Source: a virus
Length of the DNA stretch: 39,499 bases
Strand: one strand, 5' to 3'
Virus record (IMG/VR): IMGVR_UViG_3300029923_000051
Location: 1 to 39,499 of that record
The notes below the pieces were generated by a model. The model was not told the DNA's origin, did no database searches, and was given only the letters and a program-made list of their open reading frames with translations. Below, piece after piece: positions 6,966 to 12,781 of the stretch (its first letter is position 1; each line of letters begins with the position of its first letter). Position numbers and translations under genes: made by a program.

Positions 6966-7316
6966 TTATTTCAGTTTTTGTATTTTCTTTTTTCTTAGAT
7001 ATTTTTCAATATCTTTTATATCATAATAAGATGTAGTACTTTTAATTTTATCATCTAATTTATAAAATTTCAATACTGATTCAACATCTTTTATATTTAA
7101 TTTGTCTAATTTTTCACTGATACTTAATTCTATGTTATCATTTTTTAATTTATTACCTGGTTTTATTTTCAATATAAAATTGTGTATAATATCTATTATA
7201 GCACAAAAAAATAATAGAACATATTCAGTTATTGATTCATAACCAAATTTTATTAATAATACAATCATTAATAAACATAAAAAAACTATAATACCTCCAC
7301 CTATTATTAACCCCAT
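6966..7316 (-). CDS. KKK-tail family: N-terminal TM helix + C-term LKFYKLDDKIKS...DIEKYLRKKKIQKLK
   Basis: Paralog of 7326..7664 and 7670..8020. Hydrophobic N-terminus. Confidence 0.7.
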   Translation of the reverse strand: MGLIIGGGIIVFLCLLMIVLLIKFGYESITEYVLLFFCAIIDIIHNFILKIKPGNKLKNDNIELSISEKLDKLNIKDVESVLKFYKLDDKIKSTTSYYDIKDIEKYLRKKKIQKLK

Positions 7317-7325
7317 GACTAATGA

Positions 7326-7664
7326 TTATATTAGTTTTTGTATTTTCTTTTTTCTTAAATATTTTTCAAGTTCTTTAACATCGTAATCCAATGCAGCACT
7401 TTTAATTTTATCATCTAATTTATAAAATTTTAATATAGTCTCAATATCTTTTGAATTATAGTTATCTAGTTTATCACTAATACTTAATTCTCTAACCCTT
7501 ATATTTTCTTTATACTCAGGAGTTTTTTTAATTTTTATTTTTCTACAAAAACATCTAGCATTAGTTATAATATAATCAAAAAAATTATATATTGGTTCAG
7601 ATAACAATGCTATTATAATAAAAAATGCAAGCAATAAACACAAAATTTCAAATATAGTCTCCAT
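7326..7664 (-). CDS. KKK-tail family, TM + C-term ELEKYLRKKKIQKLI
   Basis: Paralog. Confidence 0.7.
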   Translation of the reverse strand: METIFEILCLLLAFFIIIALLSEPIYNFFDYIITNARCFCRKIKIKKTPEYKENIRVRELSISDKLDNYNSKDIETILKFYKLDDKIKSAALDYDVKELEKYLRKKKIQKLI

Positions 7665-7669
7665 ATATT

Positions 7670-8020
7670 TTATTTAATTTTTTTCAATTTCTTACTTCTG
7701 AGATAATTTTCAATTTCTGAAATCTTAAATTCATTTAGAGTTTTTAATGTATTTTCATCTGACTTAAAATATCTCAAATGAGCTTCAATATCTTTTATTT
7801 TTAATTTATCTAATTTCGTACTTACTCTATAGTTTTTTTCAATTATCAATTTTTTATAATCAGGAGTCTTAGTTACTAAATATTTTAATAATATTGTAGA
7901 TACTTTAATGACTAATAATTTATAATACATTTTTATGTTATACCAATATGCAATAATTACTGATAATGTAATAGGAAATATGATTACAAAAAAAATTAAT
8001 TTTAATACTACAATCGTCAT
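7670..8020 (-). CDS. KKK-tail family, TM + C-term EIENYLRSKKLKKIK
   Basis: Paralog. Confidence 0.7.
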   Translation of the reverse strand: MTIVVLKLIFFVIIFPITLSVIIAYWYNIKMYYKLLVIKVSTILLKYLVTKTPDYKKLIIEKNYRVSTKLDKLKIKDIEAHLRYFKSDENTLKTLNEFKISEIENYLRSKKLKKIK

Positions 8021-8083
8021 AATTATTTTTTTATATTATCAAAGATAATATTTTTTTTTGAATTATACAAATAAAACATATAG

Positions 8084-8281
8084 TTATTTTAATTTATCTG
8101 ACTTTTTAATTTTTTTGTCATAATGATTAGTAAATCTTATTCTATCATCATCAGATAAATCTTCACCACACCAGTCCAATATTCCTAAATCATCATCAAT
8201 TTCCCATTGACTTCTTGGTGTTAATTTAAAGTAATTTGAAGGTCTCTGAAATGATTTCTCAAACATTTGTCTTTCTGTCAT
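8084..8281 (-). CDS. hypothetical protein (65 aa)
   Basis: ORF. Confidence 0.5.
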   Translation of the reverse strand: MTERQMFEKSFQRPSNYFKLTPRSQWEIDDDLGILDWCGEDLSDDDRIRFTNHYDKKIKKSDKLK

Positions 8282-8522
8282 AATATTTTAATTTTAATAA
8301 TTTTAATTCTCTAATTTTTTTTAATTTAATAAAATTTGAAGATTCAAAGTTTATATCTATAGTATTATTATTTTTTTCAAATCTAAGAAATATATTCATT
8401 CCATTGTTATTAAATGATGGATATATTGTGGATGAAATAATGAATATTTTATTGTACAATTCACTATCTTCATTTATGCAAACAACTTTATCTCCTCTAT
8501 TAAAATAATAATAATTAATCAT
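8259..8522 (-). CDS. small GDKVVCIN-motif protein (87 aa), related to the staircase units and subtype A cassette genes
   Basis: N-terminal RGDKVVCINEDSELYNKIFII. Confidence 0.55.
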   Translation of the reverse strand: MINYYYFNRGDKVVCINEDSELYNKIFIISSTIYPSFNNNGMNIFLRFEKNNNTIDINFESSNFIKLKKIRELKLLKLKYYDRKTNV

Positions 8523-8790
8523 TATTCAATGTAACTAATTTAATTTTTCTTGACTTTTTTGTAAAATAACATTCAATATAATTGAAATCCATAAAGCACA
8601 TAGAAATATATTCAGTGTATTCAAAATCTATTCCTACCATTTCACATTTATAATCTAATATAGAAATTCTATTTTTTACATGACATATAAATTTTGATAT
8701 TATATCAATGTCAATTTTATTAAGAAAAAATTCGTATTCTTCTTTGTTTATATTATCTCTACTAATTAAATAATTTGCATGTCCAATCAT
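8515..8790 (-). CDS. hypothetical protein (91 aa)
   Basis: ORF. Confidence 0.5.
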   Translation of the reverse strand: MIGHANYLISRDNINKEEYEFFLNKIDIDIISKFICHVKNRISILDYKCEMVGIDFEYTEYISMCFMDFNYIECYFTKKSRKIKLVTLNND

Positions 8791-8794
8791 AACA

Positions 8795-9034
8795 TTAATT
8801 ATTCAATAAAATTATTTTATCTTTTCTGATTTTTGATGTATAATATTTACACTCAATCCAATTTCCATTGTCATCTTTTCCTTTTTCTATAAAATTGGTG
8901 CAAAATTTCCAACAATTTATAGATAATATATGAGTATTTATTGTTGGCTTGTTTTTACAAGAGCATAAATTTATATGATCTTTGTTATAAGTTCTATATT
9001 CAATATTTTTCTCTTTTTTGTAATATTTCATCAA
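8795..9034 (-). CDS. Cys-rich hypothetical protein (79 aa)
   Basis: ORF with CSCK...CWKFC...C. Confidence 0.5.
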   Translation of the reverse strand: MMKYYKKEKNIEYRTYNKDHINLCSCKNKPTINTHILSINCWKFCTNFIEKGKDDNGNWIECKYYTSKIRKDKIILLNN

Positions 9035-11099: not shown

Positions 11100-11103
11100 A
11101 ACT

Positions 11104-11286
11104 TTAATTATTTTTATTGATTATTTCTAATTTTTTCTTTCTGATATAATTTTCAATAAATTTTATATCCATTTTTTCTAATGATTCTATATCTAATTTA
11201 GATTTGAATATTTTTCTCAATTCATCTGTCATATATACATCAAGTCTATCACTAAAACTTTTATCATTGAATTTACTAAATCTCAT
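11104..11286 (-). CDS. KKK-tail family small protein (FKSKLDIESLEKMDIKFIENYIRKKKLEIINKNN)
   Basis: Near-identical tail to 11291..11488. Confidence 0.65.
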   Translation of the reverse strand: MRFSKFNDKSFSDRLDVYMTDELRKIFKSKLDIESLEKMDIKFIENYIRKKKLEIINKNN

Positions 11287-11290
11287 GTAA

Positions 11291-11488
11291 TTATTTTTTA
11301 TTAATTATTTCTAATTTTTTCTTTCTGAGATAATTTTCAATAATTTTTATATCCATTTTTTCTAATGATTCTGTATCTAATTTAGATTTGAATATTTTGT
11401 TACTTCTTTTTTTATTGAATTTATCCAGATAATAATAATCAAAATTCTTATTATTATGAAAATCTTCATTGTCATTCATCCGATTCAC
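11291..11488 (-). CDS. KKK-tail family small protein
   Basis: as above. Confidence 0.65.
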   Translation of the reverse strand: MNRMNDNEDFHNNKNFDYYYLDKFNKKRSNKIFKSKLDTESLEKMDIKIIENYLRKKKLEIINKK

Positions 11489-11498
11489 AACAATATAT

Positions 11499-12002
11499 TT
11501 AATAATCTAATAAGCAAGCTTCATTATCTTTTATGATTATTCTAATTGTAAAGTAAAAATAATCACAGATTATAATTTCTCTATGATCTTTGTATATGAC
11601 TATTATAGTATCATCCAACAATAATTCTTTTTCAGTCATTACTTTGTTGAAATTTTTATTATCTACAAATGATATTAATTTTTCGTTTAAGAAATTTATA
11701 ACTGCAGTTTTAAGATTTGGTTCCGCAAATTCAAAATCGTAATCCAATAAATAATTTGGATACCTGAATTCAAATTCATCTTCCGCTAATAATGATAACT
11801 CTTTATTTTCAGATAAAGAATCATAATTGAATTTTTTATATCCGTATTCTTCTGTTGATGTTTTGATCAGATTAGATTTATCTGAATTCAAATCTTCTAC
11901 CATTTCAGTTGGCATACAATCCTTTAAGCTTACATAATGATTTAGCTTTTTTAATTCCTTATATTTTTCTAAAAACTCTGTACGATCTCCTGTATAATAC
12001 AT
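11499..12002 (-). CDS. hypothetical protein (167 aa)
   Basis: ORF. Confidence 0.6.
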   Translation of the reverse strand: MYYTGDRTEFLEKYKELKKLNHYVSLKDCMPTEMVEDLNSDKSNLIKTSTEEYGYKKFNYDSLSENKELSLLAEDEFEFRYPNYLLDYDFEFAEPNLKTAVINFLNEKLISFVDNKNFNKVMTEKELLLDDTIIVIYKDHREIIICDYFYFTIRIIIKDNEACLLDY

Positions 12003-12007
12003 GATAT

Positions 12008-12274
12008 TTAATTTTTTAAGTTTAATTTTTTAGATTTATATTCAACGTATGTATGATACGATGTATATGATAATAGATAAATAATAAAAGATATTTCTGT
12101 AATATACAATATATTATTAAATATTAATGAGAATATATTAAAATTGATAATAATTTTATGATATGATAATAATCCTACTGAAATGGAAAATAATGATAGT
12201 ATTAAAACTAACACTACTAAAATGATTCCAGATATTTTAGTTATCTTTTTCATCTTCTTTATCTTTATCTTCAC
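12008..12274 (-). CDS. small membrane protein (2 predicted TM helices)
   Basis: Hydrophobic stretches. Confidence 0.55.
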   Translation of the reverse strand: MKIKIKKMKKITKISGIILVVLVLILSLFSISVGLLSYHKIIINFNIFSLIFNNILYITEISFIIYLLSYTSYHTYVEYKSKKLNLKN

Positions 12275-12497
12275 AAAAATAATTAATTTTATCTGAATAT
12301 TCCAATATGCTCATACCAAAAAACAATAAAATATCTAATTTGAATATACTATCCACCAAAATATAGATATTATTCACAAATGTGGTGTCTATTTTTAATA
12401 AATGTAAAACAACAGTGATTAAAAAAATTGCGACTAATGAAAATAATAATACTAATCCTGAAATAAGAAAGAACTTAACTGCTTTTTTCGTTTTCAT
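12237..12497 (-). CDS. small membrane protein (2 predicted TM helices)
   Basis: Hydrophobic stretches. Confidence 0.55.
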   Translation of the reverse strand: MKTKKAVKFFLISGLVLLFSLVAIFLITVVLHLLKIDTTFVNNIYILVDSIFKLDILLFFGMSILEYSDKINYFCEDKDKEDEKDN

Positions 12498-12781
12498 TTT
12501 CTTTTATTTTTTAAATATTCTAATATTTCTTTGATTTCTACTCCATTTAATATCTGATTATCTGTAAGAGTTGAGAAATCTCTTTTTGAGTAATTGAATT
12601 TTGCATTTTCAATATAAATTGAAATAGCTTTGATGAACCAGAATTTAGATAATTTTTGTACTTTACGTTTTCTAACATAAGATTCAATCTTCTTAGTATC
12701 AATATAATATAGGTAACTAACTAAATCTTTTTTTGTTTCTGGTGCTTTTCTATAGCATTCTCCATCAGTCATATCAGACAT
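12494..12781 (-). CDS. protein with internal KKK motif (IESYVRKRKVQKL), first gene of the minus-strand run
   Basis: ORF with the family motif in its N-terminal half. Confidence 0.6.
   Translation of the reverse strand: MSDMTDGECYRKAPETKKDLVSYLYYIDTKKIESYVRKRKVQKLSKFWFIKAISIYIENAKFNYSKRDFSTLTDNQILNGVEIKEILEYLKNKRK

Follow-up and report, generated by a model that had tools for sequence, protein, structure and literature searches.

A conserved C-terminal module of about 28 residues that probably defines a large family of small phage proteins

In T4-type phages a capsid-targeting sequence of ~10 residues stands at the N-terminus of the internal proteins IPI-III and of proteins of the variable IP locus, and the prohead protease cleaves it off at (L/I)xE. 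Encapsulin cargo-loading peptides and microcompartment encapsulation peptides are short C-terminal helices of weakly conserved sequence attached by a poorly conserved linker, and the precursor families of ribosomally synthesized and post-translationally modified peptides (RiPPs) join one constant recognition region to hypervariable cores in tandem gene arrays. FtsZ has a variable linker followed by a conserved C-terminal peptide and a short variable end, together forming a docking site for several partners (PMC4835091). Here we describe a C-terminal module borne by twelve small proteins in a cluster of IMG/VR virus record IMGVR_UViG_3300029923_000051 (positions 1 to 39,499; the whole 39,499-nucleotide stretch analysed is called the window), and compare it with these systems.

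The strict motif [ILV][ED]x[YF][ILV]Rx[KRT]K[LIV] is present in twelve minus-strand open reading frames (ORFs) at 6966-12781, bearing out the original prediction of twelve proteins with a common C-terminal peptide; each ORF was found as described, all on the minus strand. The motif lies 4-8 residues ahead of the stop codon in 11 of the 12 and is internal in the other. A six-frame scan of the whole 39.5 kb gave 12 strict matches, all on the minus strand and inside 6981-12688, and none elsewhere (chance expectation, a mean of 0.003 matches in shuffled DNA and 0 in residue-shuffled ORFs). With a profile hidden Markov model (HMM) built from the copies, the twelve score 20-48 bits and the best ORFs lacking the module 8.5-9.5 bits. 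Four of the window proteins also hold a weaker second copy, and such second copies in module proteins score 9-11 bits (17.5 in one offset alignment). The peptide is thus real, but the consensus first written for it was idealised, as one R and one K alone are invariant across the twelve copies. Nor is the unit the 13 residues first proposed: the conserved stretch extends over ~28 residues, beginning ~14 residues upstream of the motif, and the tail noticed originally is its C-terminal two thirds. Four ORFs at 8084-9034, considered as members with degenerate tails, were rejected because their HMM scores are at noise level. The twelve genes are:

6966..7316, minus strand: 116-aa paralogue with hydrophobic N-terminus; module 6969-7058 (..YYDIKDIEKYLRKKKIQKLK, then stop), weaker upstream copy 7059-7109 (LDKLNIKDVESVLKFYK)
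7326..7664, minus strand: 112-aa paralogue with hydrophobic N-terminus; module 7329-7418, weaker upstream copy 7419-7469
7670..8020, minus strand: 116-aa paralogue with hydrophobic N-terminus; module 7673-7762, weaker upstream copy 7763-7813
9031..9300, minus strand: 89-aa helical, coiled-coil-like protein; module 9034-9123 (..IKLKDIENYLRNKKLEKLD, then stop)
9287..9607, minus strand: 106-aa helical, coiled-coil-like protein; module 9290-9391
9594..9821, minus strand: 75-aa helical, coiled-coil-like protein with near-identical database proteins P0001 and P0004; module 9597-9695, divergent (IESYVRETKL)
9829..10092, minus strand: 87-aa helical, coiled-coil-like protein; module 9832-9927
10076..10456, minus strand: 126-aa helical, coiled-coil-like protein; module 10079-10180 (IEKFIRSKKI)
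10440..10607, minus strand: 55-aa protein; module 10443-10544
11104..11286, minus strand: 60-aa protein; module 11107-11205
11291..11488, minus strand: 65-aa protein from a GTG start (62 aa from ATG); module 11294-11389
12494..12781, minus strand: 95-aa protein; internal module 12638-12736, degenerate second copy at the C-terminal end, 12497-12553 (ILNGVEIKEILEYLKNKRK, then stop)

The 55-aa ORF, at first described as hidden, has an identical counterpart, P0005, with gene calls on 19 public contigs. The 95-aa protein, in which the motif stands 54 residues ahead of the stop codon, is encoded by the first gene past a divergent intergenic region.

The module reaches far beyond this genome. When 1.84 billion representative proteins were searched exhaustively with HMMER, 311 clusters (defined at 50% identity) were recovered at E<=1e-3, whereas a word-indexed search had found 21 small proteins. 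The profile search that the original prediction called for shows strong enrichment outside this genome, which speaks for the original finding. Lengths range from 33 to 131 aa among the best 150 of the 311 clusters, with the module C-terminal, and 5-10 residues follow its core in 85% of members. The N-terminal parts have a median of 33 residues, and those of 166 members fall into 141 groups without detectable mutual similarity; their composition (K, N, D, Y, I and S, with 0.6% Cys) is that of ordinary AT-rich coding sequence. Hydrophobic N-termini resembling membrane anchors also occur outside the window (P0105, P0137, P0147 and P0151), and P0068, P0078 and P0158 join the four window proteins in carrying two modules, an arrangement that fits a binding domain. 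All fetched module DNA loci have a GC content of 21-30% and lie on phage-like contigs. The neighbourhoods inspected consist of arrays of small uncharacterised ORFs with occasional T4-type markers (T4_Y16D, Phage_30_3, RNA ligase), and tandem arrays of 3-5 module genes are common in other phage contigs (L013/L016, L031, L037, L039 and L040).

Existing resources did not yield a relative. Ten window proteins and ten family members gave nothing above noise in Pfam, and PHROGs returned a best E-value of 0.006 and three weak matches (E 0.017-0.045) to the C-terminal end of phrog_28913, none of them convincing. A pattern scan of 185,579 bacterial and archaeal species (one genome per species) gave 131 pattern matches and no confirmed relative. 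Cultured phages gave no match (INPHARED, megablast and tblastn), but BLAST's low-complexity filter could mask a 30-mer this rich in K, and the result therefore does not prove that cultured phages lack the module. The peptide strings do not occur in the literature searched. Two short matches, in a primase-like protein of contig L003 ending KVIENYLRKKKFI and in contig L001, lack the acidic helix described below and were taken as chance. We consider it very likely that the module, conserved at the protein level, defines a large and previously unannotated family of small phage proteins.

The module begins with an acidic helix, which a break of two residues separates from a basic amphipathic helix. 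Across the family the consensus reads (K/E)(T/S)DEEILDx[IM]DIKxIEx[YF]LRKKKLEx[IL]NKK, of which ..EEILDx[IM] belongs to the first helix and DIKxIEx[YF]LRKKKLEx[IL]NKK to the basic one (KTDEEILDNIDIKDIEKYLRKKKLEKINKK is an example). Numbered from the central Ile, conservation across the family is 98% for L-8, 80% for D-4, 97% for I0, 98% for E1 and ~100% for Y/F3, and in the second half 97% for R5, 92% for K7, 100% for K8, 92% for L9 and 95% for I/L12. AlphaFold2, run on the 60-aa protein 11104-11286 with a 141-sequence alignment, places a helix at residues 9-38, a break at M39-D40 and a helix at 41-59, with a predicted local distance difference test score (pLDDT) of 89-97 across the module; the first helix carries a net charge of about -5 and the second of about +7. 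In this model the hydrophobic positions -9, -8, -5, -3, 0, 3 and 4 could build a small hairpin core, and the fold is more probably a hairpin than a kinked helix. Judging from their spacing, two positions on the basic end, L9 and I/L12, would in that case face no conserved partner inside the module. Fold searches returned generic long helices alone and no structural relative.

The module evolves very differently from the proteins that bear it. Between the window and a syntenic 221.9-kb relative (L004), it is 41-100% identical and the rest of the protein 22-77%. For the 9829..10092 protein the values are 73% for the module and 56% for the body, and in the 95-aa protein the module matches its L004 orthologue at 22/22 positions. 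The neighbouring gene, whose product resembles the major vault protein (MVP), shows 90% identity between the two. L004 has 8 module copies in the cluster, against 12 in the window, and lacks several of the window genes, which indicates that the cluster turns over fast while the module stays constant. As an example of gene turnover in the cluster, L004 carries at 8106-9053, between a 93-aa module protein and the next gene, a gene for 315 aa that has no counterpart at that place in the window.

Several features argue for a specific macromolecular contact over a generic charge effect: the charges are near-invariant, with K and R not interchangeable across the family at positions 5, 7 and 8; the module is conserved across diverged phages and strictly placed at the C-terminus; and it is occasionally duplicated within a protein and attached to anchors and coiled coils. 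In this genome the family grew to twelve copies in one tightly packed, minus-strand gene cluster, both by tandem duplication and through the joining of the module to at least four unrelated N-terminal parts, namely the membrane anchor, the coiled coil, a short stretch without structure and the 95-aa body. We propose that the module itself would be a small helical hairpin in the host cytoplasm that acts as a specific protein-protein docking or oligomerisation unit, through which the fast-evolving N-terminal parts, or just multiple copies of the module, would be brought during infection to a single, highly conserved partner. In the membrane-anchored members, too, it probably faces the cytoplasm by the positive-inside rule. 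That the module works by docking or oligomerisation is a plausible reading, to which we give somewhat less than an even chance; the combination of a protein-level module and family with docking or oligomerisation is the best overall explanation, and we hold it to be about evenly balanced between true and false. The list of options offered originally thus narrows to the interaction peptide or targeting signal, and its recombination or regulatory element drops out. Secretion, also on that list, is unlikely, given that the tail is strongly basic, C-terminal to the hydrophobic segment and, by the same positive-inside rule, probably cytoplasmic.

A more specific version of the docking proposal is that the module serves as a portable C-terminal address tag of an AT-rich clade of T4-like phages, carrying a changing repertoire of mini-proteins to one hub. 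These mini-proteins would be soluble, coiled-coil and membrane-anchored; candidates for the hub would be the ribosome, RNA polymerase, the replisome and a compartment built by the phage; and the tandem arrays would represent an evolvable "payload library" within a new targeting system that has no sequence relative. We regard this version as doubtful.

A number of observations weigh against docking. No partner was found, and across lineages the module genes have no gene of known function as a constant neighbour. Among the 34 + 150 matches listed there is no fusion to a known domain and no protein longer than 149 aa. PDB holds no relative (best E=0.43 in profile searches). The AlphaFold2 model of a paralogue with a hydrophobic N-terminus, the 6966..7316 protein, has low confidence (helices 3-51, 56-71, 75-87 and 100-115). 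In addition, the short N-terminal parts under little constraint could mean that there is no "payload" and that the module acts alone.

A basic helix invites comparison with nucleic-acid binding. The module could bind DNA or RNA through its second helix, which is rich in R and K, and the architectures anchor-linker-module and coiled coil-module would suit anchored and coiled-coil versions acting as tethers for phage nucleic acid, in the manner of the phi29 membrane protein p16.7. Such a function appears unlikely to us, because the family keeps a strict preference for K or R at three positions, the acidic first helix offsets most of the charge, and there is no similarity to SAP or to any PDB chain. 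The helix-extension-helix (HeH) motif of SAP-type DNA-binding domains (LxxLxVxELRxELxxRGLxxxGxKxxLixRL) was examined as a candidate and rejected: an hhalign comparison of a 98-sequence module alignment with seven approximate SAP sequences, a result that is thus indicative and not final, gave a probability of 0.1% and one aligned column, and the module ends before there is room for a second SAP helix.

Packaging offers another destination. Under this explanation the module would be an address tag for loading into a vault-like/SPFH shell, encoded 1.6 kb downstream of the cluster at 2910-5369, or into the capsid, much as encapsulin cargo-loading peptides or the T4 capsid-targeting sequence are, and its extreme C-terminal position on unrelated bodies would be as expected. 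A gene with MVP_shoulder, Vault_3 and Band_7 matches does lie directly downstream of the cluster, and this gene order is kept in the two related phage lineages sampled (three contigs: L002/L004/L021, L020 and L008). Against this, no MVP-like or DnaJ gene occurs in the flanking DNA fetched for 13 distant, independent module loci, although these flanks span 2-20 kb and such a gene may be located farther off in the same genome. Membrane-anchor-like N-termini are found on three window members and on the four database proteins named above, internal and duplicated modules occur, and column frequencies show no conserved (L/I)xE protease site in register. We judge packaging to be rather improbable. 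The narrower candidates of a cargo tag for the MVP-like shell and of a DnaJ client were rejected, the linkage being restricted to the lineage of the window (L002/L004/L008/L020/L021).

The MVP-like gene (2910-5369, minus strand) encodes an 819-aa protein matching Pfam MVP_shoulder (9e-28), Vault_3 and Band_7/SPFH, without a PHROG match; it is 81-90% identical in related contigs, where it always lies immediately downstream of the module cluster. The sole report of phage MVPs that we found is a 2023 preprint (10.1101/2023.11.10.566534). In the middle of the module cluster (10611-11099, minus strand) lies a gene whose 162-aa product carries a J domain at its C-terminus (DnaJ, 1.4e-12; HPD present), which suggests recruitment of host Hsp70. 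The J-domain protein is conserved in L004 and L008 and is unlinked to the module outside this lineage.

The original prediction also stated that the DNA matching the peptide is conserved, and this holds: the 20-mer it gave has 8 matches at <=3 mismatches against 0.25 expected, and a 48-nt family of direct repeats with 77-88% identity joins otherwise unrelated genes. Since the motif sits immediately upstream of the next gene every time, one might suppose a DNA or RNA element within the coding sequence, which could serve as a promoter, as a recombination site or as the region where ribosomes bind for the next gene. Selection, however, acts on the protein and not on the DNA. Synonymous-site identity over the 12 copies is 0.70, compared with 0.63 +/- 0.04 predicted by a permutation test from amino-acid conservation and AT codon bias, an excess that is not significant (p=0.07, or p=0.22 without close paralogues); synonymous sites in the tail, which it had been suggested might be unusually conserved, do not exceed the codon-bias expectation. 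In a set of 86 distinct module DNAs drawn from many contigs, codon choice matches the background at 8 of 12 conserved positions, the 97%-invariant Arg being encoded by AGA, CGT, CGA, AGG and CGC (that is, by both AGR and CGN) in background proportions and Leu switching between TTR and CTN.

Two codon deviations remain, and both have simpler readings. Ile0 favours ATT (69/81 vs 53% expected), possibly through avoidance of ATA at a critical site, and K6/K7 are enriched for AAG, which fits avoidance of slippery A-runs; exactly one AAG is present in 7/7 KKK copies of the window, where the longest A-run is 8. The Arg codon and the start codon that follows are 25-43 nt apart, and in one case 176 nt, a variable spacing that makes a ribosome-binding role unlikely. 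Promoter-like sites are not enriched (87 vs 82 +/- 7 expected), the scan for terminator-like sites found none, and Rfam and tRNA scans gave no match. A recombination or regulatory element embedded in the coding sequence, as had been suggested, is consequently not supported by codon usage, spacing or promoter counts; a DNA or RNA element is largely refuted and is very improbable as the explanation of the tail. As a positive control, a similar codon test does detect a strong bias in another family of the window (p=9e-12).

In this other family, too, different bodies share their termini, and the case is larger than that of the module. The family comprises ~40 ORFs of 80-250 aa, including leucine-rich-repeat (LRR) proteins, with an N-terminus like MK[IY][IK][KR]F[NE]E (MK.[IL]K.F[NE]) and KFN[IL] directly before the stop codon. 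The ORFs lie at 13606-31953 and 38371-39087, mostly on the minus strand, with 18213-19980 and 27244-27558 on the plus strand. The Asn codon is AAC in 21 of 34 ORFs, whereas 12% is expected genome-wide, and the context is AAATTTAACATATAA followed by the next ATG within 0-4 nt, so a DNA or RNA signal at these ends is possible. In the 60-aa protein 11104-11286 the first residues, MRFSKFND, look like the N-terminal motif of these KFN[IL] proteins and the tail is the module; this protein may be a chimera that combines both families.

Conservation that ends 3-13 residues ahead of the stop over ~28 residues, in tandem arrays whose members are otherwise hypervariable, would also be expected of peptides that act as nascent chains, by pausing or arresting the ribosome near the stop, or of a RiPP-type "follower" that is recognised for the processing of hypervariable N-terminal cores. 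A radical-SAM gene does lie 3.3 kb from module genes in one distant locus (L005). Most loci, however, have no modifying enzyme nearby, their neighbour genes being mostly without a Pfam match, and the Cys content and ordinary composition of the variable parts point away from RiPP cores. Internal and duplicated modules are also at odds with action near the stop, and the end of the module has no Pro or Gly, which known arrest peptides, to our knowledge, have at their ends. We give these possibilities very little credence.

Recent tandem duplication alone, with the tail as the still-undiverged end of paralogues, accounts for part of the cluster. Over their whole length, the three paralogues with hydrophobic N-termini share 29-46% identity, the helical, coiled-coil-like front parts are weakly similar to one another, and 11291..11488 is a recent duplicate of the 3' half of 11104-11286 (96% DNA identity over 104 nt). 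Once the tails are removed, however, the window proteins split into groups without significant similarity between them, the pair 11104/11291 and the 55-aa and 95-aa proteins being the further ones. Because the front parts form at least four unrelated groups, duplication alone is insufficient, and the whole-gene identity raised at the outset as a possible explanation is not what the genes show. The module is also kept in 311 clusters with unrelated N-termini, and between orthologues it is consistently better conserved than the body. Duplication accounts for the origin of the copies and not for the constancy of the tail; as a sole explanation it is refuted and has scarcely any probability left.

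Mimicry of the FtsZ C-terminal peptide (DYLDIPAFLRKQAD; its sequence verified in PDB chains), by which the module would compete for FtsA, ZipA or similar proteins and block host division, is suggested by a by-eye match to D[IY]xDIxx[YF]LRK and by a like architecture of variable disordered linker, conserved peptide and short basic end, but is essentially refuted on sequence and next to impossible in our view: the family HMM gives the E. coli FtsZ tail 0.7 bits, which 3.5% of shuffles reach, tail-bearing FtsZ chains in PDB are not matched at E<=10, and a 98%-invariant Glu stands where FtsZ has its hallmark Pro.

The window as a whole consists of tightly packed small ORFs with a GC content of 22-24%. 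Two of its proteins, of 600 aa, open with the gp9/gp10 N-terminal domain of T4 (Pfam) and also match the PHROG "baseplate wedge tail fiber connector"; on these grounds we regard the window as a section of the genome of a large, uncultured myovirus of T4 type. A DNA comparison with 50,697 deposited phage genomes gave no match, and the close relatives are metagenomic contigs of 130-326 kb. Since one module locus originates from the hypolimnion of Trout Bog, the module family is at least in part a freshwater one.

Several other genes of these phages were noted. Adjoining the gp9/gp10-like baseplate proteins, a 799-aa protein (35881-38280, minus strand) matches Fib_succ_major, the Fibrobacter succinogenes major domain (E 6e-18), and may be a receptor-binding protein. 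Four LRR proteins (LRR_4, E 1e-16 to 1e-18) are encoded on the minus strand at 29060-31125 and 38371-39087, three of them as tandem paralogues, and distant module-bearing contigs contain ankyrin repeats (L025) and RCC1 repeats (L005); together these are eukaryote-like repeat proteins in module-bearing phages. At 1-1010 on the plus strand, four overlapping ORFs of ~70 aa (141-386, 374-592, 580-804 and 792-1010) make up another tandem family of small genes; in L013 and L016, small ORFs related to them adjoin the module genes (tblastn E 1e-5 to 1e-7). The C-terminus of ORF 780-1007 (..IRKQKLNKLNIL) matches the module HMM at noise level. The related 130-kb phage contig L008 carries at 679-2201 an IS605-type OrfB/TnpB (Cas12f-like TNB domain) and a Y1 transposase.

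The module family is not described in Pfam, PHROGs, PDB or the literature searched, and with 311 sharply defined clusters at 50% identity it merits a domain-database profile even without a function. These very short genes display an extreme asymmetry of constraint, ~28 near-invariant residues standing beside ~30 that change freely. Should the module prove to be a docking tag, it would open up hundreds of small, "dark" early phage genes in one go, the 28-residue peptide could reveal a hub, cellular or viral, targeted by a clade of large freshwater phages, and it might be used as a compact targeting tag.

Like the T4 capsid-targeting sequence, the module is a short constant terminal peptide on unrelated, fast-evolving small proteins from a variable cluster of a T4-type phage. 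Unlike that sequence, it is C-terminal (in 11 of the 12 window copies), ~28 residues long and without (L/I)xE in register; it is also found on membrane-anchored proteins, and the two have no sequence similarity. With the encapsulin and microcompartment peptides it shares a C-terminal helix common to different proteins encoded near a shell gene, but it is nearly invariant, its MVP/SPFH linkage is limited to this lineage and its bearers include no cargo-like enzymes. The FtsZ tail resembles it in having a variable linker, a conserved peptide with [FY]LRK and a short basic end at the extreme C-terminus, and differs from it in lacking the extra conserved acidic helix, in having Pro in place of Glu and in showing no significant profile similarity. 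As in RiPP precursors, tandem genes of 50-100 aa have one constant and one hypervariable end, but the polarity is reversed, Cys, Ser and Thr are not enriched, no maturation enzyme is consistently present, and some of the variable parts are membrane anchors or coiled coils. The module shows none of the tested membership features of the T4 tag, the loading peptides or the FtsZ tail, and has no relative in sequence or fold. A shared terminal module on diverse bodies is known in kind; what is new here is a sizeable protein family that embodies one.

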